A DNA stretch of 64,000 nucleotides, from the NCBI RefSeq assembly GCF_057098645.1, contig NZ_CM169472.1. One strand, given 5' to 3'. Within the stretch, counting starts at the first letter, position 1, and every line of letters starts with the position of its first letter. A program made the position numbers and the translations under genes. Shown piece by piece: positions 42,146 to 59,870 of this stretch. A model generated the notes under the pieces. It searched no databases, was not told the origin of the DNA, and saw nothing but the letters and a program-made list of their open reading frames with translations.

Positions 42146-44227
42146 ATGACAGGTCGCCTGTTAGATGCTGTCCCACTCAGTTCCCTAACGGGCGTTGGCG
42201 CAGCACTTAGTAACAAACTGGCGAAAATCAACCTGCATACCGTGCAGGATCTACTCTTACACCTTCCCCTGCGCTACGAAGATCGCACCCATCTCTACCC
42301 CATCGGAGAACTACTGCCGGGCGTTTATGCCACGGTGGAAGGCGAAGTGCTGAACTGCAATATCTCCTTCGGCGGTCGGCGGATGATGACCTGCCAGATC
42401 AGCGACGGTTCCGGCATCCTCACCATGCGCTTTTTCAATTTCAGCGCGGCAATGAAAAATAGCCTGGCGACGGGCCGCCGTGTACTGGCTTATGGCGAAG
42501 CAAAGCGCGGTAAATATGGTGCGGAGATGATCCACCCGGAATACCGCGTGCAGGGCGATCTCAGCACGCCAGAATTACAGGAAACGCTCACGCCGGTTTA
42601 TCCAACAACGGAAGGCGTAAAGCAGGCCACGCTGCGTAAATTAACCGACCAGGCGCTGGATCTGCTCGACACCTGCGCCATTGAAGAACTCCTGCCGCCG
42701 GAACTGTCACAAGGAATGATGACGCTACCGGAAGCGTTGCGCACTTTGCACCGCCCGCCACCGACGCTACAGCTTAGCGATCTGGAAACCGGGCAGCATC
42801 CGGCGCAACGTCGTCTGATTCTGGAAGAACTGCTGGCGCACAACCTCAGCATGTTAGCCTTACGTGCCGGAGCACAGCGTTTTCATGCCCAGCCGCTGAG
42901 CGCCAATGATGCGCTGAAAAATAAACTCCTCGCAGCCTTACCGTTCAAGCCAACGGGCGCACAGGCACGCGTAGTGGCGGAGATCGAGCGCGATATGGCG
43001 CTGGATGTGCCGATGATGCGCCTGGTACAGGGCGATGTAGGTTCCGGTAAAACGCTGGTCGCCGCCCTCGCCGCGCTGCGTGCGATTGCCCACGGCAAAC
43101 AGGTGGCATTGATGGCACCAACCGAATTACTCGCCGAACAGCACGCCAATAACTTCCGCAACTGGTTTGAACCGCTCGGTATCGAAGTGGGCTGGCTCGC
43201 CGGTAAGCAGAAAGGCAAAGCGCGACTGTCTCAGCAGGAAGCCATCGCCAGCGGTCAGGTGCAGATGATTGTTGGTACGCACGCCATCTTCCAGGAACAG
43301 GTGCAGTTTAACGGTCTGGCGCTGGTGATTATCGACGAACAACATCGCTTTGGCGTGCATCAGCGTCTGGCGTTATGGGAGAAAGGCCAGCAGCAAGGCT
43401 TCCATCCGCATCAGTTGATCATGACCGCCACGCCGATCCCCCGCACGCTGGCAATGACGGCGTATGCCGATCTCGATACCTCGGTGATAGATGAGCTGCC
43501 GCCAGGCCGCACGCCAGTGACTACGGTCGCTATTCCTGATACCCGCCGTACCGACATCATTGACCGCGTGCGCCACGCCTGCATAACTGAAGGTCGTCAG
43601 GCGTACTGGGTTTGTACGTTGATTGAAGAGTCAGAGTTACTGGAAGCGCAGGCGGCGGAAGCTACCTGGGAAGAGTTGAAACTGGCGCTACCAGAATTGA
43701 ATGTTGGCCTGGTACACGGGCGGATGAAACCAGCCGAGAAACAGGCGGTGATGGCGTCGTTTAAACAAGGTGAGCTACATCTGCTGGTTGCCACTACCGT
43801 TATTGAAGTCGGTGTTGATGTGCCTAACGCCAGCCTGATGATTATCGAAAACCCTGAGCGTCTGGGTCTGGCGCAGTTACACCAGCTTCGCGGGCGTGTA
43901 GGTCGTGGTGCGGTGGCTTCTCACTGCGTGCTGCTCTACAAAACGCCGCTCTCCAAAACCGCGCAAATTCGGCTGCAAGTGCTGCGCGACAGCAACGACG
44001 GTTTTGTGATTGCACAGAAAGACTTAGAGATTCGCGGACCGGGTGAACTGTTAGGTACGCGTCAGACGGGTAATGCTGAGTTTAAAGTGGCGGATTTACT
44101 GCGCGATCAGGCGATGATCCCGGAAGTTCAGCGCCTGGCGCGACATATTCACGAACGTTACCCACCACAAGCAAAAGCCCTGATAGAACGCTGGATGCCG
44201 GAGACGGAACGTTACTCCAACGCATGA
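42146..44227 (+). CDS. recG: ATP-dependent DNA helicase RecG
   Basis: ORF 42113..44227 (GTG in track); start set at ATG encoding MTGRLLDAVPLSSLTGVG (693 aa); Walker A GDVGSGKT, DEQH box. Confidence 0.95.
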   Translation: MTGRLLDAVPLSSLTGVGAALSNKLAKINLHTVQDLLLHLPLRYEDRTHLYPIGELLPGVYATVEGEVLNCNISFGGRRMMTCQISDGSGILTMRFFNFSAAMKNSLATGRRVLAYGEAKRGKYGAEMIHPEYRVQGDLSTPELQETLTPVYPTTEGVKQATLRKLTDQALDLLDTCAIEELLPPELSQGMMTLPEALRTLHRPPPTLQLSDLETGQHPAQRRLILEELLAHNLSMLALRAGAQRFHAQPLSANDALKNKLLAALPFKPTGAQARVVAEIERDMALDVPMMRLVQGDVGSGKTLVAALAALRAIAHGKQVALMAPTELLAEQHANNFRNWFEPLGIEVGWLAGKQKGKARLSQQEAIASGQVQMIVGTHAIFQEQVQFNGLALVIIDEQHRFGVHQRLALWEKGQQQGFHPHQLIMTATPIPRTLAMTAYADLDTSVIDELPPGRTPVTTVAIPDTRRTDIIDRVRHACITEGRQAYWVCTLIEESELLEAQAAEATWEELKLALPELNVGLVHGRMKPAEKQAVMASFKQGELHLLVATTVIEVGVDVPNASLMIIENPERLGLAQLHQLRGRVGRGAVASHCVLLYKTPLSKTAQIRLQVLRDSNDGFVIAQKDLEIRGPGELLGTRQTGNAEFKVADLLRDQAMIPEVQRLARHIHERYPPQAKALIERWMPETERYSNA

Positions 44228-44411
44228 CCAGACTCATCACAAGACAAGTCACGCAGTAAATCTTCAATCTGGATAGTGAGGATATCCATTGCCTCATACG
44301 CATCCTGTGCAATTCGCGCCGCCATTGCGCCTTCCGGTTCACCACGCAGAATTTCAGCCGCTGCCTGTATGAACCGCCCCGGTTTTCCTGGAGAGTGTTT
44401 TATCTGTGAAC

Positions 44412-45299
44412 TCAGGCTGCCAGATCATCGTTTCTGATGGAAGCATAATAAGCTTTTTCTGCTTCTGCCGGAGGGATATGACCCAGCCTTCCCAGCAATC
44501 GTCGATTGTTATACCAGTCCACCCACGTGAGTGTGGCCAGTTCCACTTCTGCACGGTTTTTCCAGCTCTTACGGTGTATTACCTCCGCTTTGTAAAGACC
44601 ATTGATGCTCTCCGCCATCGCGTTGTCATACGAGTCACCTGTACTCCCTGTTGATGCCAGCAGTTTTGCTTCTTTTAGTCGCTCCGTATAGGCCAGTGAT
44701 ACATACTGAGAACCTTTATCACTGTGATGGACTGTGCCGGACGGCCGACGGGCCCACAACGCCTGCTCCAGTGCATCCAGCACGAATGTCGTTTCCATAG
44801 ACGATGAGACTCGCCACCCCACGATACATCCGGCAAACACATCAATGATGAACGCCACATAGACGAAGCCCTGCCATGTGCTGACGTAAGTAAAATCAGC
44901 CACCCACAGCTGGTCAGGACGTTCTGCCACGAACTGACGGTTTACGCGGTCGCCTGCGGAAACGGCTTTCCGGCTGACGGTAGTACGGACCTTTTTACCC
45001 CGGAGAACACCGGCAAGTCCCATAACCGCCATGAGACGTGCCACAGTGCATCTGGCCACTCTGATACCTTCCCGTAACAACTGACGCCAGACTTTACGCA
45101 CACCGTATACCTTGTGATTTTCATCGTATACGCGCTGTATCTCTCTCTTCAGCCAGTCATCGCGCTGAGCACGGGCACTGCGTTTATCAGGATGATGTCG
45201 CTGTTGCTGACAGTGGTAATACGTTGACGGGGCAATATGCAGTTCACTGCATACCGGTCCGACCCCGTACTGCTCACGCAGCTTATCCAGCAGCGGCAT
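44412..45299 (-). CDS. IS3-family transposase OrfB (DDE integrase core), normally expressed as an OrfAB fusion by -1 frameshift
   Basis: 295-aa ORF with DDE-domain sequence (…HHSDKGSQYVS…DNAMAESINGLYKAE…). Confidence 0.9.
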   Translation of the reverse strand: MPLLDKLREQYGVGPVCSELHIAPSTYYHCQQQRHHPDKRSARAQRDDWLKREIQRVYDENHKVYGVRKVWRQLLREGIRVARCTVARLMAVMGLAGVLRGKKVRTTVSRKAVSAGDRVNRQFVAERPDQLWVADFTYVSTWQGFVYVAFIIDVFAGCIVGWRVSSSMETTFVLDALEQALWARRPSGTVHHSDKGSQYVSLAYTERLKEAKLLASTGSTGDSYDNAMAESINGLYKAEVIHRKSWKNRAEVELATLTWVDWYNNRRLLGRLGHIPPAEAEKAYYASIRNDDLAA

Positions 45300-45625
45300 T
45301 ATTTTTTCCAGAGGCGGTCGAACTCCGCCTTCGCAAAATAAGCGGAAGCCTGGCGAAGGATATCGTTACTGCGGCGCAGTTCACGATTTTCACGTTCCAG
45401 CTCTTTCAGACGCTGACGTTCAGCGGTGGTGAGTCCACCATCACCACTCCCGGTATCCCGCTCATGCTGACGAACCCACACACGCAGAGTCTCTGGTGTA
45501 CAGCCAATCTTTGGGGCAATGGAACAAATTGCCGCCCATTGTGAGTCATATTCGCCCTGACTTTCCAGAACCATACGAACTGCCCGTTGACGGACCTCGG
45601 GGGAAAAACGTGTATTTTTAGTCAT
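45299..45625 (-). CDS. IS3-family transposase OrfA (HTH protein)
   Basis: 108-aa [36 protein letters not shown]...[36 protein letters not shown], recognised as IS629-type. Confidence 0.9.
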
Positions 45626-46393
45626 CCTGTTTACCTCTTTCTCAGGGAGTTTAGTCTCCAGGATTCCCGGGGCGGTTCAGTACGCCAGCCACAATCATTT
45701 CAGGTGTTAACATTTGGCGAAGAAAAGCGCGATTATCAGAGGACCAGCCATCTTTATGGCCTAATGGATGCCCCCAGCCTATCCATTCTTGCGACCATAA
45801 CGGATTGGCTTCTATGGGATAAATTAGATGCGCGGCATACTGAATAGCACACACCGCTTTTCCTGGCGTATCCAGCGCCCACCAGCGCGACCAGAGAGAA
45901 CGAATTAACGGCGCGGCCCCACCCAGAGTATTGAACACCGCCAGCCAGCAAAGAACGTTATTGAAACCACGCTCGTTATCCATACGCTGCAACGCGGTGT
46001 CCAGTAAAAATTGCCGTACCTGCTGGCGTTGGGAAGCATTCATCATCTCCTGCCAGAGATAGGGCCGACACAATGCCTTCATTAAGGATTCTTCGAAGTG
46101 ATCACCATAACCGCCAGCTAAAACGGTTTCATGCCATTGCGCCAGGCAGAGCGGAAACAGATAGCGAAACAACTCTATTTGCATCGGTTCGTTATAAACG
46201 AGATTGAGTACATAGTAAGCACTCAAATCCCATTCGCTGATCTGCTGCCACTCTTTAGCCGCCAGCGCCTTGAGTTCGGCATCTGCGTAATCAAATTCCG
46301 TTTCCCATACACAGAGCACTGGCGGCTCATCACCAAAAATATGGCGACAGTGTTCACGTAGCGTTTCCGGTTCCTTCCGACGCTTTTTCATTT

Positions 46394-47599
46394 TTAACCG
46401 GCAAAAATCGGCAACATTAAATACAGCTTAATCACCAGCGCATTGACGATATCGATAAAGAACGCACCGACCATCGGCACCACCAAAAACGCCATGTGCG
46501 ACGGGCCAAAGCGTTCAGTGATCGCCTGCATGTTGGCGATTGCCGTTGGCGTTGCACCGAGGCCAAAACCACAGTGACCCGCAGCCAGCACTGCCGCATC
46601 GTAGTTTTTGCCCATCATGCGCCAGGTAACGAAGATGGCATACAACGCCATGAAGATGGTCTGTACCACCAGAATCGCCAGCATCGGCAGCGCCAGCGAA
46701 GCCAGCTCCCACAGTTTCAGCCCCATCAGCGCCATCGCCAGGAACAACGACAGGCTTACGTTACCCAGCACGGATACCGCACGCTCAAAGACGCGGTAAA
46801 AGCCCATCATTGACAGACCGTTGCTCAGAATCACGCCAACAAACAGTACACAGACGAAGGTCGGCAGTTCAAAAGCAGTGCCAGCCAAAAGTTGCGCAAC
46901 AATTTTCCCCACCGTCAGGCAGATAGCAATCAGCGCGATAGTTTCAATCAGCACCAGCGAGGTGATCATGCGACCCACATCCGGCTTTTCAAACGCCGTC
47001 GGGACTTCCTGGTCATCCGGAATACCGTTCGGCGTGGTGGAGTGTTTCACCAGATAGCGCGCCACCGGACCGCCAATCAAGCCGCCCAGCACCAGACCGA
47101 ACGTTGCACAGGCCATCGCCACTTCCGTCGCATTGGTGAAGCCATAACGTTCAATGAACAATTTACTCCACGCAGCGCCCGTACCGTGACCGCCGGAAAG
47201 CGTAATAGAACCGGCCAACAGCCCCATCAGCGGATCAAGCCCTAACAGGCTAGCCATACCAATGCCAATGGCATTTTGCATCACCAACAGACCAACAACC
47301 ACAATCAAGAAGATGCCAACCACACGCCCACCGGCACGCAAACTGGCAATGTTGGCGTTCAGGCCAATGGTGGCGAAGAAAGCCAGCATTAACGGATCGC
47401 GCAGGGACATATCAAAGTTGACTTCCCAGCCCATGCTTTTTTTCAGTACTAGTAGCGCCAGCGCCACCAACAAACCACCCGCAACAGGTTCCGGTATGGT
47501 GTATTTCTTCAAAAAGGAGACGGAATGGACCAACTTACGCCCGAGCAGCAACGTCAGCGTTGCGGCAACAAGCGTTGCTAAAGTATCGAGATGAAACAT
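46394..47599 (-). CDS. gltS: Sodium/glutamate symporter
   Basis: 401-aa polytopic membrane ORF MFHLDTLATLVAATLTLLLGRKLV... Confidence 0.9.
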   Translation of the reverse strand: MFHLDTLATLVAATLTLLLGRKLVHSVSFLKKYTIPEPVAGGLLVALALLVLKKSMGWEVNFDMSLRDPLMLAFFATIGLNANIASLRAGGRVVGIFLIVVVGLLVMQNAIGIGMASLLGLDPLMGLLAGSITLSGGHGTGAAWSKLFIERYGFTNATEVAMACATFGLVLGGLIGGPVARYLVKHSTTPNGIPDDQEVPTAFEKPDVGRMITSLVLIETIALIAICLTVGKIVAQLLAGTAFELPTFVCVLFVGVILSNGLSMMGFYRVFERAVSVLGNVSLSLFLAMALMGLKLWELASLALPMLAILVVQTIFMALYAIFVTWRMMGKNYDAAVLAAGHCGFGLGATPTAIANMQAITERFGPSHMAFLVVPMVGAFFIDIVNALVIKLYLMLPIFAG

Positions 47600-55155: not shown

Positions 55156-55250
55156 GGAAGATCGTCGTCTCCGGTGAGGCGGCTGGACTTCAAATCCAGT
55201 TGGGGCCGCCAGCGGTCCCGGGCAGGTTCGACTCCTGTGATCTTCCGCCA
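55156..55250 (+). tRNA. selC: tRNA-Sec (selenocysteine, anticodon UCA)
   Basis: 95-nt sequence GGAAGATCGTCGTCTCCGGTGAGGCGGCTGGACTTCAAATCCAGT...GTGATCTTCCGCCA with long variable arm, 8-bp acceptor stem and encoded CCA. Confidence 0.9.
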
Positions 55251-55412
55251 AACCTCATCCAGCCAGTTCCGAGACACTCCATAAAATCATTTATATTCAA
55301 TGCGATGAATAATCAGCTTGTCCGTAATAGTCCGAGATCATCTCCCTGAATCCGCGAAAAATATGTATAGTAATGTGTATAGATTTTTTATACGTAGTTT
55401 TCAGTTATACAC

Positions 55413-56591
55413 ATGGCCCTAACCGATATACAGATCAAACGTGCAAAACCACAAGACAAACCATACACATTAAACGATGGACAAGGTCTGTCATTGCTTA
55501 TCAATCCCGATGGCTCGAAAGGCTGGCGTTTCCGTTTCCGGTTTGCAGGGAAAGCGCGGTTAATGTCATTTGGCAGCTACGATTTAGTAAGCCTCGCAGA
55601 AGCACGTGAGAAACGCGATACGGCTCGTAAGCAGGTAGCAAACGGCATTGATCCAGTAGCAGAGCGTAAGGCTCAGAAAATTGCTCAGAAATTATCAACT
55701 GAAAACTCTTTTGAGGCCGTTAGCAGAGAATGGCATGCAGCAAAAGCAGATCGCTGGACTTTAGCTTATCGCGAAGAAATTATTAAAACATTTGAACAGG
55801 ATGTTTTTCCTTTCATTGGTAAACGGCCAATAGCTGAAATTAAACCCCTAGAACTGCTTGAAGTTCTTAAACGCATAGAAAAACGTGGAGCGTTGGAGAA
55901 AACCAGAAAAGTACGTCAACGATGCGGAGAGGTGTTTCGCTACGCGATCATCACTGGCCGCGCTGAATACAATCCAGCACCTGATTTAGCTATCGCATTA
56001 GCTGTACCGAAGCAAAAACATCATCCTTTTCTATCAGCAGAAGAACTCCCTCATTTTGTCAGAGATCTTGAGGCTTACACAGGTAGCATAATCACTAAAA
56101 ATGCAACTAAAATTGTGATGCTTACTGGAGTCAGGACACAGGAAATGCGTTTTGCCACTTGGGACGAAATTGATTTACAAAAAAAGGTATGGGAAATACC
56201 GGCCGAACGAATGAAAATGCGCCGACCACATCTTGTACCACTCTCCACTCAAGTAGTTGAAATTTTTCAACAACTCAAGCTAATCACCAAAAACTATCCA
56301 TATATTTTTATCGGCCGTAATAATCACACTAAGCCAATTTCTAAAGAAAGTGTATCCCAAGTAATAGAATTACTTGGCTATAAAGGAAGAGCTACGGGCC
56401 ACGGATTCCGCCATACAATGTCTACTATTTTGCATGAGTACGGATTTAACAGCGAATGGATAGAATTACAATTGGCTCATGTTGATAAGAATAGTATTCG
56501 AGGCACTTATAATCATGCCCAATATTTAGAAAAGAGAAGTTCTATGATGCAGTGGTACAGTGATTATATCCTTAATAGAGATAAAGCATAG
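55413..56591 (+). CDS. int: P4-family tyrosine integrase, adjacent to the tRNA-Sec 3' end
   Basis: 392-aa ORF with N-terminal arm-binding region (…AKPQDKPYTLNDGQGLSLLINPDGSKGWRFRFRFAGK…) and C-terminal catalytic residues (…HGFRHT…LAHVDKNSIRGTYNHAQY). Confidence 0.9.
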   Translation: MALTDIQIKRAKPQDKPYTLNDGQGLSLLINPDGSKGWRFRFRFAGKARLMSFGSYDLVSLAEAREKRDTARKQVANGIDPVAERKAQKIAQKLSTENSFEAVSREWHAAKADRWTLAYREEIIKTFEQDVFPFIGKRPIAEIKPLELLEVLKRIEKRGALEKTRKVRQRCGEVFRYAIITGRAEYNPAPDLAIALAVPKQKHHPFLSAEELPHFVRDLEAYTGSIITKNATKIVMLTGVRTQEMRFATWDEIDLQKKVWEIPAERMKMRRPHLVPLSTQVVEIFQQLKLITKNYPYIFIGRNNHTKPISKESVSQVIELLGYKGRATGHGFRHTMSTILHEYGFNSEWIELQLAHVDKNSIRGTYNHAQYLEKRSSMMQWYSDYILNRDKA

Positions 56592-56646
56592 AATAATAGA
56601 AGTTAATGCTGTATACTGTAAATTAACAATATAGTAAGGATTGAAA

Positions 56647-57513
56647 ATGAAGAAGACAGTACTTATAACTGATTTAGATAACACACTATTCGACTGGTTT
56701 AGCGTTTGGTATCATAGCTTTAATGCAATGCTAAATAAAGTCGTTGAGATTTCCGGTTTTTCTAAAGACGAGCTTATTGCACAGATAAAACCAATTCATC
56801 AAAAATATGGTACTGCCGAATACTCTTTTATTCTAGAAAGCATACCTCTTTTACAAGAAAAATATGGTGATAGAAACTCCATCAATTTAGTTATGGATGA
56901 TGCTATACACGCTTTCAGAAGTGAGAGAAAGAAATATCTTTCTCTGTACCCAACAGTAATGGACACTTTGAGTGTATTAAAAAGTAAAGGGTGTTATATT
57001 GTCGCGTATACTGAATCCAAAGCTTATTACTCCAATTTCCGCTTAACAAGATTAGGATTAGATGGTGTGATTGATGTCCTTTTCTCTCCTGAAGATCATG
57101 AAATCCCTGATGGTGAGAAAAAACAAGATAAATATAATCTAATGCTGACAAAGCAAGAATATACACCTATTGATGAAATTAAACCAAACCCACAACTTCT
57201 TCTGGACATAATAAAATCAATTGGTGCCACACCAGAAGAGTGTGTATATATAGGTGACAGTGAAATGAAAGATATAGAAATGGCCCAAAAAGCAAACGTA
57301 TCAGATGTTTTTGCAAGCTATGGAACGAATCATTTTGAAGAGAACAAGGAGGGATATGAATTACTCCGTGCGGTAACCCACTGGACTGATGCTGATGTTG
57401 AAAGGGAAAGAAAAATTAAAGAAAATGCCTTCGGAGCAAAACCCACATATGTAGCCAAACAATTTTCAGATATTTTGTCTTTTTTTGAATTTACAAAATT
57501 TAAAGGAAAATAG
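56647..57513 (+). CDS. HAD-superfamily phosphohydrolase (subfamily IA-like), cargo gene 1
   Basis: Track ORF 56641..57513 (TTG); first ATG gives MKKTVLITDLDNTLFDW (motif I DxDxT), later EIKPNPQ (motif III Lys) and YIGDSEMKDIEMA (motif IV GDxxxD); AT-rich; RBS aagga upstream. Confidence 0.8.
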   Translation: MKKTVLITDLDNTLFDWFSVWYHSFNAMLNKVVEISGFSKDELIAQIKPIHQKYGTAEYSFILESIPLLQEKYGDRNSINLVMDDAIHAFRSERKKYLSLYPTVMDTLSVLKSKGCYIVAYTESKAYYSNFRLTRLGLDGVIDVLFSPEDHEIPDGEKKQDKYNLMLTKQEYTPIDEIKPNPQLLLDIIKSIGATPEECVYIGDSEMKDIEMAQKANVSDVFASYGTNHFEENKEGYELLRAVTHWTDADVERERKIKENAFGAKPTYVAKQFSDILSFFEFTKFKGK

Positions 57514-57514
57514 A

Positions 57515-58147
57515 ATGAACGATCTAGAATTAAAGAAACATGATGACGCTATAAAATTAGAAAATCTCAAGTTGAAAATTGATATCTGGAAGACAGTTGT
57601 TGACGTTCAGAAACATTTTAATGATCTTGAGATGAAGGTTAGAAACTTCGGAATTTTGATCTTGTCTGCATTTATTGGTGCAATTGGTGTAAGCTTTAAT
57701 TCCGGCGCTGAATTTATAGCCTTTGGCAATCATTACTCTGTTGCTGCCATTCTTGCTTTCGGGGCATCTGTTGTTTGGTTGTTATTTTATTTTGTTGACG
57801 TTTACTGGTATCACCCATTACTTCTTGGAGCTGTAAAGAAAGGTTCAGAACTCGAAAAAGAAATTGCATCCGACATCCCAGGAATTAATCTTACAGAAAC
57901 CATAGGAAAAAGTAGCCCAAAAGATATTTTGCTCTGGAAAAATATGCATAGTACTGGAAAAGCTAACCTTTTCTACTTTGGGGTTTTAGCTGTTCTGTTA
58001 ACTATTTTTATTTCTCTACTGTGCTTTAAAGCCCCGCAAAAGACAAATCAACTAAATGAATTAAATATTAAAGCAAATTGCACTAGAAACAGTAATTACA
58101 ATGGAGTTAATTGCATTATCGCATCACAGCCAAGTGACAACAAATAG
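57515..58147 (+). CDS. Small membrane protein with three predicted TM helices, cargo gene 2
   Basis: Track ORF 57485..58147 (TTG); first ATG (MNDLELKKHDD...) lies 1 nt after the HAD stop; hydrophobic helices ILILSAFIGAIGVSF, VAAILAFGASVVWLLFYFV and LFYFGVLAVLLTIFISLLCF; AT-rich. Confidence 0.7.
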   Translation: MNDLELKKHDDAIKLENLKLKIDIWKTVVDVQKHFNDLEMKVRNFGILILSAFIGAIGVSFNSGAEFIAFGNHYSVAAILAFGASVVWLLFYFVDVYWYHPLLLGAVKKGSELEKEIASDIPGINLTETIGKSSPKDILLWKNMHSTGKANLFYFGVLAVLLTIFISLLCFKAPQKTNQLNELNIKANCTRNSNYNGVNCIIASQPSDNK

Positions 58148-58237
58148 TGCACTTTATCACTCTTTACCCCAACTGCATGTACTTACCTTGTGAGCACAGA
58201 GACGCGCTATAAATAAACACTTTACTGCTGGCGGGCG

Positions 58238-58256
58238 GTGCTTTCCCCGCCTCGCC
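58238..58256 (-). other. P2/P4-type cos site (19-nt cohesive-end sequence)
   Basis: Plus strand gtgctttccccgcctcgcc; reverse complement GGCGAGGCGGGGAAAGCAC matches the P2/P4 cohesive end as I recall it; lies between the cargo pair and psu. Confidence 0.65.
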
Positions 58257-58359
58257 CGCCCGCTTTGCAGGGCGGTTTTAATGCAGTTGCACAGTCACGC
58301 TCAGGCTGCGCCGGGAATGGCGCGGTCTGCAGAGAATGAGGCAGGAAAACGCATGCAAA

Positions 58360-58390
58360 GCCATGCACCTTATCGATGCATGGCTTTTTT
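58360..58390 (+). terminator. Rho-independent terminator downstream of the int/cargo genes
   Basis: gccatgca-(9-nt loop)-tgcatggc followed by tttttt. Confidence 0.5.
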
Positions 58391-58420
58391 CAGTAAAAAC
58401 GGGAGGATTTTCGGGGAATT

Positions 58421-58993
58421 TTACACAGACTGACGTGATGCCAGTTGCGCACTTTTACGCGAAAAAATCATGTTCTGCGCAGGGGTGAATTTTTCACGGC
58501 TGTCATCCACCGAAGCCGCGTCAGGCCTGAATCCGATGGTCGTTAAAATGTCGCTATCCTGTGCGGAATAATTAATTTTTTCACCCTTCGCAAGCCAGGA
58601 CAGGAGGGCTTCACGCAGGGCATCTGTGGCACGCTGTATGGCACAGTTTCGGGCAATGGCCGTCAGCTCACTGTAGCCCATCAGCTCCGGTGCCAGTGCC
58701 GCCGCCAGTGCTGTGCCGTGCTGCTGCATAAAATCATTCAGCCGATCGCGGATGCTGATGTGCTGAACGGCTTCATGCGAACGAATATAACGACCGGCGG
58801 CCTGATTCACCTGCCATTTTCTGACTTCGATAATATTGCGTAATTCGTCCAGGCGACTGACGTTTCTGCCTTCTCCTGACAGAAGCCGCAGATATTCCTG
58901 TTCGGCCGCAGCCAGCTCATTTTTGCGTTGCAGCCATGCTGCTTTGTTATTCTGACAGGTGTCAAAGGCCTGCTGTAAGGCTGTGCTTTCCAT
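58421..58993 (-). CDS. psu: P4-type polarity suppression protein (capsid decoration / Rho antagonist)
   Basis: 190-aa ORF MESTALQQAFDTCQNNKAAWLQRKNELAAAEQEY... recognised as P4 Psu; sid-delta-psu gene order. Confidence 0.85.
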   Translation of the reverse strand: MESTALQQAFDTCQNNKAAWLQRKNELAAAEQEYLRLLSGEGRNVSRLDELRNIIEVRKWQVNQAAGRYIRSHEAVQHISIRDRLNDFMQQHGTALAAALAPELMGYSELTAIARNCAIQRATDALREALLSWLAKGEKINYSAQDSDILTTIGFRPDAASVDDSREKFTPAQNMIFSRKSAQLASRQSV

Positions 58994-59066
58994 CGTTATC
59001 TCTTTCTCATCATGCTGAAGAATAAAAATACGGTGTGCGGCGACGGCCGGGGTTAACCGGCAGCCC

Positions 59067-59567
59067 TCATTCCAGACGCAGCGAATATGATTGTGTTTTT
59101 AACCGTACTGGCGGCAGTTCCTGTTTTTCATGCAGGCTTTCTGCCAGTTCGTCCGGCGTGACCGGGCGGACAATGAAGCGGTTGATGGTCTGAAGCGTTT
59201 TAAACACCAGACCACAGCCCGGATCCGTGCACACATAAAAACGCTCGGTGACTTCCTGAGACAGACGCCGCGATGTTCTTGACAGCGCAAGGCCTTTACA
59301 TCTCCGACAACAATATCCGGTAACAAGCATTCTTTTCGGGCGCTTCATGCTACCGGAGGCTGACGTCAGTGAATCGCGGTATCTCTGTTTGCCTGAAATG
59401 TATTCCATTCCTGAATCTTTACAGTCAGAGAAAAAGCTTTCACTCGCTTCAAATGTCGCAGAGCAATAAATATTCCGGCACTGTGCAATCATTATCTTGG
59501 TGCCATCGTCCATGAAATGTGCGCGACGGGTGTGAGCAACATGTCCACACGACGGGCAGTAAATCAT
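59067..59567 (-). CDS. delta: P4 Delta-type late transcription activator (two fused Ogr-like zinc-finger domains)
   Basis: 166-aa ORF with two Cys clusters (CPSCGH…CRNIYC and CCRRCKG…CTDPGC). Confidence 0.85.
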   Translation of the reverse strand: MIYCPSCGHVAHTRRAHFMDDGTKIMIAQCRNIYCSATFEASESFFSDCKDSGMEYISGKQRYRDSLTSASGSMKRPKRMLVTGYCCRRCKGLALSRTSRRLSQEVTERFYVCTDPGCGLVFKTLQTINRFIVRPVTPDELAESLHEKQELPPVRLKTQSYSLRLE

Positions 59568-59790
59568 GACAGCAGTCCTCTGGCCTTAAGCACTGCTCCC
59601 TGCTGGTCTATTTTGTCCTGCCACACCTTGCGCTGTGCCGGTGTGCCTGCCACCTCATAATCCATGTGCGGGAGTGTTGCCGCTGACAGTCCGGTCAGCC
59701 GGAGAACCGGCTCGCCGGTGAGGCTGATTTGCATCTGTTTTATTTTCTGTTCCAGCGATGATTTCACCTGCTGCGTATTCCGCTCTATTC
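59564..59790 (-). pseudogene. sid: 3' fragment of P4 sid (capsid size determination), separated from its 5' part by an IS21-family element
   Basis: ORF 59564..59842: the first ~17 codons come from the IS end, the remainder (RIERNTQQVKSSLEQKIKQMQISL…KARGLLS) is the Sid C-terminus, with a 4-bp overlap onto the delta start. Confidence 0.6.
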
Positions 59791-59870
59791 GATCACGGAT
59801 TGGCATCGAAGTCCGATCAGCGATTCGCATCCATTCGATCAACCGGGAACTTAACTTTTTCTACCGCTTT

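Follow-up and report, generated by a model that had tools for sequence, protein, structure and literature searches.

An IS629 insertion within the accessory gene ybl159, between recG and gltS, in a probable sub-lineage of Escherichia coli O145:H28

An IS629 copy splits an open reading frame between recG and gltS

Between recG and gltS in a 64-kb stretch of E. coli DNA (the window; contig NZ_CM169472.1 of RefSeq assembly GCF_057098645.1), an insertion sequence (IS) lies within an open reading frame (ORF). The locus raises the questions of which element this is, whether the interrupted ORF is a real gene, how far the insertion has spread, and what was lost with it. A preliminary description, made from the sequence, had reported an "IS629-like" element disrupting a hypothetical gene. 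We read the stretch from 43900 to 46700 and computed on it directly. The explanation that best accounts for the locus, and which we consider very likely, is that a copy of IS629 inserted into the accessory gene ybl159 in a sub-lineage of E. coli O145:H28. The features of the locus are as follows (the target-site duplication is given without strand).

42146-44227, + strand: recG, 693 aa, intact (ORF list; so annotated by RefSeq in BL21(DE3) and O26, where the sequence is identical)
44212-44369, - strand: 3' part of ybl159 cut off from the rest, comprising codons 238-288 and the stop (in-silico excision restores the 288-aa ORF)
44367-44369: target-site duplication, copy 1, GTA on the + strand and TAC in gene sense (empty-site genomes carry one GTA)
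44370-45679, - strand: IS629 (IS3 family), exactly 1310 bp, a mosaic copy, 98.9-99.2% identical to named and O145:H28 copies
44370-44394, + strand: IRR, the orfB-side terminal inverted repeat, starting TGAACCGCCCCGG (sequence reading)
44412-45299, - strand: IS629 orfB, 295 aa, DDE catalytic part of the transposase (NCBIfam NF033516, 311.8 bits, cutoff 160)
45228-45344, - strand: ALIL frameshift-stimulating pseudoknot of IS629 (Rfam RF01497, 120.9 bits against a gathering cutoff of 50, E = 7e-31)
45299-45625, - strand: IS629 orfA, 108 aa, helix-turn-helix part of the transposase (NCBIfam NF033516, profile positions 1-86)
45651-46391, - strand: chimeric truncated ORF, 246 aa, consisting of Ybl159 residues 1-237 and 9 IS-encoded residues, LNRPGNPGD (ORF list; product in public drafts)
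45655-45679, - strand: IRL, the orfA-side terminal inverted repeat (sequence reading)
45680-45682: target-site duplication, copy 2, GTA (sequence reading)
46394-47599, - strand: gltS, intact, its stop 2 nt upstream of the ybl159 ATG (TAA-AA-ATG)

The extent of the element, 1310 bp, and the GTA repeats on both sides of it agreed exactly with what had been described. Its ends begin with 5'-TG and finish with CA-3'; TGAACCGCCCCGG and the reverse complement of the opposite end match at 13 of 13 positions, and over the first 25 nt 22 positions match. This 13-mer occurs at two sites in the window, both of them IS629 ends, against a chance expectation of 0.04. The two transposase ORFs point the same way as ybl159 and gltS and overlap by TAATG, directly 3' of a run of six A residues, with a -1 frameshift at GGAAAAAATAATG; an equivalent IS629 copy carries the label "programmed frameshift" in RefSeq. 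A single GTA is found at the empty sites of at least 1911 complete genomes; the duplication is 3 bp long, within the 3 to 4 bp reported for IS629 (PMC3271280).

Over its full 1310 bp, the element was 98.9% identical to the IS629 annotated by the depositors of phage JLK-2012 (JQ347801). It resembles the IS629 of enterohemorrhagic E. coli (EHEC) and Shigella (isoforms IS1203 and IS3411) in its length, its TG...CA repeats, the orfA/orfB pair with a -1 frameshift, the ALIL pseudoknot, and the 3-bp duplication. Because of the full-length identity to an annotated copy, together with the traits reported for IS629, we assign the element by sequence to IS629 proper; the IS3-family assignment in the preliminary description stands, and its qualifier "like" can be dropped. 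Insertional gene inactivation by IS629, as seen here, is well documented in O157 and O145. It is also reported as the most prevalent IS of O145:H28 (PMC3893438) and as one of the main ways in which genes are inactivated in EHEC (PMC9943667).

The interrupted ORF is a real gene carried by about a third of E. coli

Excising the IS and one GTA in silico joined the 246-codon ORF in frame to 51 codons and a stop, restoring an ORF of 288 aa (46391 to 44212, minus strand) that shares its final 16 nt with the convergent 3' end of recG (stop at 44227). The preliminary description had anticipated this fusion to some 50 codons ending at 44212, as well as an overlap of ~16 bp with recG; the protein of about 290 aa that it proposed is indeed Trp-rich (13 Trp, 4.5%), with its length now corrected to 288 aa. 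The restored sequence was 100% identical to the intact copy in O145:H28, O157:H7, and BL21(DE3).

That the IS interrupts a real gene, as had been supposed, was borne out by the 5426 complete E. coli genomes, in 1911-1917 of which the uninterrupted 867-bp ORF is an annotated coding sequence. Intact ybl159 was found in 1917 of 5426 such genomes (~35%), in single copy and always on the chromosome, with 1872 of the 1917 copies at least 99% identical. Carriers include BL21(DE3), O157:H7, O26:H11, O103:H2, and O145:H28. The intact protein is catalogued in RefSeq as WP_000747329.1, "hypothetical protein" (ECD_RS25820 in BL21(DE3)), and bears the name "Ybl159" in UniProt; in E. coli B, O157:H7, and O26 it is 100% identical and encoded at the same locus in the same orientation, whereas here its gene is interrupted. 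In the searchable literature, nothing relevant turned up under the name "ybl159" or under guessed O157 locus tags, and the name comes with no assigned function or domain. The locus tags ECD_RS25820 (BL21(DE3)) and ECO26_RS34360 (O26:H11) are far out of numerical order relative to their neighbors, which suggests that ybl159 was missed in the first round of annotation and added later.

A homology search with the reconstructed ORF, named beforehand as the check on the proposed gene, returned 33 close matches to the 288-aa protein. Homologues of the same length were present in Salmonella (69-71% identity), Superficieibacter (64-66%), Intestinirhabdus (55%), an "Enterobacter sp." (49%), and Leminorella (45%) and, further away, in Cupriavidus (43%), a metagenome-assembled genome (MAG) of the Zoogloeaceae (37%), and Planctomycetes (34%). 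An exhaustive search with a profile hidden Markov model extended the family to 444 clusters at E ≤ 1e-3, of which 113 were at E ≤ 1e-30, spread over several phyla. The intact E. coli protein itself was missing from the first homology search. The 90% protein cluster to which it belongs counts 9280 members, is represented by a GltS sequence, and combines entries of both proteins, a database artefact that probably explains the omission.

The ratio of nonsynonymous to synonymous substitution rates (dN/dS) of ybl159 came to 0.27 for comparisons within E. coli; for those with Salmonella and Superficieibacter, in which dS is saturated, it was ~0.11-0.13. Its dN was 6 to 11 times that of the adjacent recG. 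Synonymous codon preference lay ~6 standard deviations above a null of uniform synonymous shuffling, and GC content at third codon positions (GC3) was 0.50, compared to 0.61-0.65 in the neighboring genes. Given the homologues, the 444 clusters, the dN/dS values, the codon choice, and a confident AlphaFold2 model (see below), we conclude that ybl159 is a real gene under purifying selection; it is an accessory gene, catalogued but uncharacterized. Neither of the outcomes named beforehand as speaking against the gene was obtained: homologues exist and codon usage is non-random, and K-12 has no intact equivalent. Across the Enterobacteriaceae, ybl159 orthologues were 48-71% identical and recG 92-94%. 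The synonymous divergence of ybl159 also exceeded that of recG, a hint that old ybl159 alleles were exchanged by recombination.

The insertion is shared by draft genomes with identical flanks

To the left of the IS, 24,370 bp of the window were 100.0% identical to several chromosomes of Shiga toxin-producing E. coli O145:H28, and this backbone ruled out a Shigella origin of the window. A survey of the recG-gltS interval for both gene and IS, as proposed with the preliminary description, found the IS at this site in none of the 5426 complete E. coli genomes. The gene-bearing ones had an empty site, matching the 2801-bp query over 1488 bp, that is, minus 1313 bp. The exact 246-aa chimeric product was, nevertheless, present in a public protein collection. 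Its coding sequence lies on 15 or more public drafts (contigs or assemblies of read sets), each ending 28-265 nt inside the IS. The junction in these drafts was the same as in the window, and the flanks showed zero differences over up to 3.7 kb. Since junction and flanks are identical, the insertion is best read as inherited within one O145:H28 sub-lineage; it did not arise in assembly and is not confined to this strain.

IS3-family elements move by a copy-out/paste-in mechanism. In the O145:H28 sub-lineage, IS629 transposed into codon 237/238 of ybl159, duplicating 3 bp (GTA). The event is routine, a textbook case of IS629 insertional inactivation at a site unseen in complete genomes, and IS629 transpositions are the main source of small-scale polymorphism in EHEC. 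The insertion could be used as a marker of the sub-lineage, either by polymerase chain reaction across recG-gltS or through the 246-aa chimera.

Apart from its site, this copy differs from known IS629 copies by a patch of substitutions. The closest copies among the 5426 complete genomes were 99.2% identical, and none of these genomes held an identical full-length copy. All 10 differences from the O145:H28 copies fell within a single 79-bp tract (nt 566-644 in IS sense, window 45036-45114), which changes one amino acid (K63Q in OrfB) and matches a different IS3-family isoform, present in ~1800 E. coli records, at 100% identity. The copy is therefore a mosaic, explained most simply by gene conversion between isoforms.

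Ybl159 is predicted to be all-alpha and is encoded next to no conserved partner gene

Ybl159 is acidic (pI 4.9) and has no hydrophobic N terminus. Structure prediction for the rebuilt protein, for which AlphaFold2 was given an 18-sequence alignment, returned a confident all-alpha model of 15 helices, with a predicted local distance difference test (pLDDT) score of 88.6 and a predicted template modelling score of 0.88. The family is homologous over its full length of ~280-310 aa and shares a core motif, EPxQPxLFRYLFPxCLxxW, in addition to conserved Trp residues. The 18 homologues had 41 invariant columns in common; in a 64-sequence alignment, the near-invariant positions were F33, Y60, Q71, P80, W86, W170, G177, A179, W216, and N220. 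These are aromatic or structural, and at no position of the 64 sequences was an acidic residue or a His, Cys, Ser, or Lys conserved.

Comparison with known families gave little. The reconstructed protein and distant members had no match in Pfam, no member of the 64-sequence alignment reached E ≤ 0.001 there, and no Imm family was recovered. NCBIfam and PHROGs had no match to Ybl159, a profile search of the PDB sequences found no relative, and a fold search of BFVD was without a match. With PADLOC, none of the families of known anti-phage defence was hit at E ≤ 1 by any of three members. Foldseek against AFDB50 retrieved family members (template modelling scores 0.8-0.96) and otherwise only unnamed proteins. 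One structural neighbor (rank 28, 20% identity) was labelled DUF1822 (PF08852), a candidate that we discarded because no Pfam profile match accompanied it. The modelled fold resembles HEAT/TOG-type solenoids only generically, and neither a recognizable HEAT, ARM, or TOG repeat profile nor a strong structural superposition was found. A protein present in a third of E. coli, BL21(DE3) and O157:H7 included, is thus absent from Pfam, NCBIfam, the PDB, and the searchable literature, and it is in this target gene only that the locus has potential for discovery; the natural knock-outs and the contrast between K-12 and BL21 provide material for a functional test.

Outside the Enterobacteriaceae, the neighborhood of the gene varied. 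In Leminorella, the neighbors were gapA and a yeaD-sized ORF. Small unknown ORFs near an McrC-like gene flanked it in Cupriavidus, and a clan-AA aspartic protease gene in the Zoogloeaceae MAG; on metagenome contigs, a ParE/antitoxin pair lay beside one member and an amidohydrolase gene beside another. The smaller of our alignments, used as the query, returned nine named loci, and a second, word-indexed search with the broad alignment yielded no names, Pfam domains, or fusions. In the longer family members, the extra length consisted of low-complexity or coiled-coil tails only. Across at least 15 loci examined, there was no conserved partner gene apart from the linkage to recG described below, and no toxin, Rhs, contact-dependent inhibition (CDI), or type VI secretion system (T6SS) gene was adjacent. 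We found no sign of plasmid or phage cargo in PHROGs, BFVD, or IMG/VR, and the three "plasmid" matches to ybl159 were chromosome fragments with recG adjacent.

Since no partner gene is conserved, Ybl159 appears from these neighborhoods to work alone. The generic alpha-solenoid without conserved catalytic residues points to a non-enzymatic binding protein, and we give about even chances to Ybl159 being an acidic cytoplasmic protein that works on its own as a binder or scaffold, without catalysis. An accessory factor with a niche- or conflict-related role would agree with the low GC3, with fast but constrained evolution, and with a patchy occurrence, at a single locus, in both E. coli and Salmonella.

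The strongest of the alternatives extends this last point. Ybl159 would then be an orphan immunity- or defence-type binder of a toxin or phage factor, the loss of which would alter susceptibility to competitors or phages. The presence/absence polymorphism, the rate of evolution, and the base composition just mentioned would suit such a role, as would the acidic, all-helical, binder-like predicted fold and the position of some distant members in variable regions beside McrC or ParE-antitoxin genes. Yet PADLOC and PHROGs gave no match, the loci examined had no adjacent toxin, Rhs, CDI, or T6SS gene, ybl159 is not on mobile elements, and within E. coli it is nearly invariant, unlike typical arms-race genes. 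We therefore consider a role of this kind unlikely, and the more specific idea that Ybl159 neutralizes an exogenous protein by binding it is an equally uncertain guess.

The recG-gltS interval has three alleles, and ybl159 always abuts recG in five enterobacterial genera

The interval between recG and gltS (window 44212-46393) turned out to be tri-allelic in E. coli: it holds ybl159 in ~35% of genomes, a 168-bp repetitive extragenic palindromic (REP) spacer in ~34%, and a 33-bp hairpin in ~30%. The preliminary description had given K-12 a short interval and had called the gene accessory on that ground, and K-12 MG1655 indeed has a 168-bp spacer unrelated to ybl159 and no gene; the K-12-type spacer occurred in 1869 of the 5426 genomes. 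Between the K-12 and the gene-bearing allele, homology breaks off 10 nt short of the recG stop, to begin again at that of gltS. We considered the K-12 spacer as a deletion remnant of ybl159 and rejected this, as the two have no similarity.

The 33-bp spacer, sampled in ATCC 25922 and two other strains, is one strong hairpin, GGCGGCGGT-GAGAAG-ACCGCCGCC (-21 kcal/mol), which reads as a bidirectional terminator; the K-12 spacer is the same hairpin split by a REP-like insert of ~135 bp. The REP/BIME-containing spacer of K-12 and the hairpin of ATCC 25922 are alternative alleles for one position, bounded by the stops of recG and gltS; they are non-coding in contrast to ybl159 and have no sequence in common with it. 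The gene allele has no terminator hairpin where recG and ybl159 converge. In this allele, recG ends with the three codons and stop TCC AAC GCA TGA versus TCG AAT GCG TAA; as the recoding is synonymous, RecG ends in ...ERYSNA in all alleles.

The order gltS-ybl159-recG was found in E. coli, Salmonella, and one enterobacterial metagenome bin. The ybl159 ATG follows the gltS stop by 2 nt (or -1 nt), with the 2-nt spacing also seen in Salmonella, and this spacing implies that ybl159 would be co-transcribed and translationally coupled with gltS. In other enterobacteria, the upstream neighbor is instead xanP or glpX, in divergent orientation, and ybl159 still abuts the recG stop, so that the distance to this stop is -16 to +21 nt in five enterobacterial genera, whichever gene lies on the far side.

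Such constancy could be taken to mean that Ybl159 is tied to RecG or to the rpoZ-spoT-trmH-recG operon, by binding of RecG or through convergent transcription, in which case the IS would alter recG expression. The unbroken abutment, opposite gltS, xanP, or glpX alike, speaks for such a tie, and so does the fact that ybl159 takes the place of the strong bidirectional terminator hairpin of gene-less alleles. But outside the Enterobacteriaceae no member adjoins recG, 65% of E. coli do without the gene, and common descent with recombination through conserved flanks can explain the position equally well. We regard a functional tie to RecG as very doubtful.

The insertion very likely inactivates ybl159

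The IS splits codons 237/238 (in gene sense ...GGC GTA | CAG...), replacing the last 51 of 288 residues with the nine IS-encoded ones. Lost with them are the end of the helix at 230-243 and the two helices at 250-262 and 264-277, modelled with block pLDDT values of 97, 97, 93, and 87. The lost segment contains positions that were invariant or nearly so among the 18 homologues (L244, E249, A253, A260, I266, I271, and L278). Because the last two helices, confidently modelled and with family-invariant positions, are missing, the truncation very likely amounts to loss of function, i.e., a null allele, as far as sequence and model allow. The recG stop lies 143 bp from the IS, and the recG and gltS sequences are untouched. 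As ~65% of E. coli live without ybl159, its loss is probably neutral or nearly so, with a small fitness cost.

A rarer, separate ybl159 allele ends at the same residue. In this allele, the single substitution C712T turns CAG into TAG (Q238*), giving a 237-aa product, and base 712 stands third in TAC, the target triplet (in gene sense) duplicated by IS629 (window junction 44369/45683). Of the 129 possible single-base nonsense changes, only 1 lands there. Two or more backbones carry Q238*, with 99.7% and 99.1% identity to the window, and among public drafts it was present in 225 index blocks; it occurred in 0 of 1913 complete genomes with ybl159. The coincidence of Q238* and the IS, noticed after the fact, may reflect chance, a hotspot, or selection on the C-terminal module. 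As a footprint of IS excision Q238* is unlikely, being on other backbones, and the IEE paper describes joining at microhomologies, not substitutions.

Several considerations weigh against the interpretation of ybl159 as a gene for a stand-alone binding protein inactivated by the IS. For a novel fold family, the lack of conserved catalytic residues is a weak argument, and the functional class is drawn only from negative evidence and a generic fold resemblance. The ybl159 ATG has no obvious Shine-Dalgarno sequence, so that expression would depend on the proposed coupling to gltS. The invariable abutment of recG in the Enterobacteriaceae could mean a functional link, one overlooked when the protein is taken to act on its own. 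Finally, the 237-aa form could still fold and act, and since Q238* ends at the same residue, a short form could be tolerated or even favored.

Taken further, this last point would have the truncated product of 237 (+9) aa keep or gain a function and the truncation be selected rather than neutral. In its favor is Q238*, a second truncation at the IS target triplet, found on more than one backbone and at one of many possible positions; against it stand the post hoc nature of the observation, the absence of Q238* from the complete genomes with the gene, the good conservation and confident modelling of the lost helices, and the fact that core residues are usually laid bare when a solenoid loses its end. 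In our judgement, it is improbable that the truncation was selected. Little better are the prospects of a more far-reaching proposal, in which Ybl159 founds a new stand-alone alpha-solenoid family, kept as a long-lived polymorphism at the recG 3' end for conflict or RecG-dependent DNA transactions, with truncations at residue 237 being selected. That the 288-aa ORF between recG and gltS is open by chance and no real gene, leaving the IS with nothing to disrupt, is hardly credible and effectively refuted already: the out-of-order RefSeq locus tags of a gene apparently missed by the original annotation, the lack of Pfam and NCBIfam matches and of an obvious Shine-Dalgarno sequence, and the GC3 below that of its neighbors would agree with it, but not the same-length homologues at 23-71% identity in several phyla, the dN/dS of 0.1-0.3, the confident AlphaFold2 model, or a codon preference far above the shuffle null.

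Other features of the window

Away from recG and gltS, the window contained the following features.

25114-25152, - strand: JUMPstart RNA element (Rfam RF01707, 55.2 bits), in the waa (lipopolysaccharide core) region
55156-55246: tRNA-Sec gene (selC)
55413-56591: P4-type tyrosine integrase, directly after selC
59871-60869 and 60643-62289: istB and istA, respectively, of an IS21-family element

The JUMPstart element is placed as expected upstream of a long polysaccharide operon. Near selC, an ORF for a HAD-like hydrolase follows the P4-type integrase, and phage-type isrK and C4-target RNAs were seen at 63.8 kb of the window. In EHEC, selC is the site of the locus of enterocyte effacement and prophage-remnant region, and from 55156 to 64000 the window holds the first part of a genomic island that has integrated at this tRNA gene.

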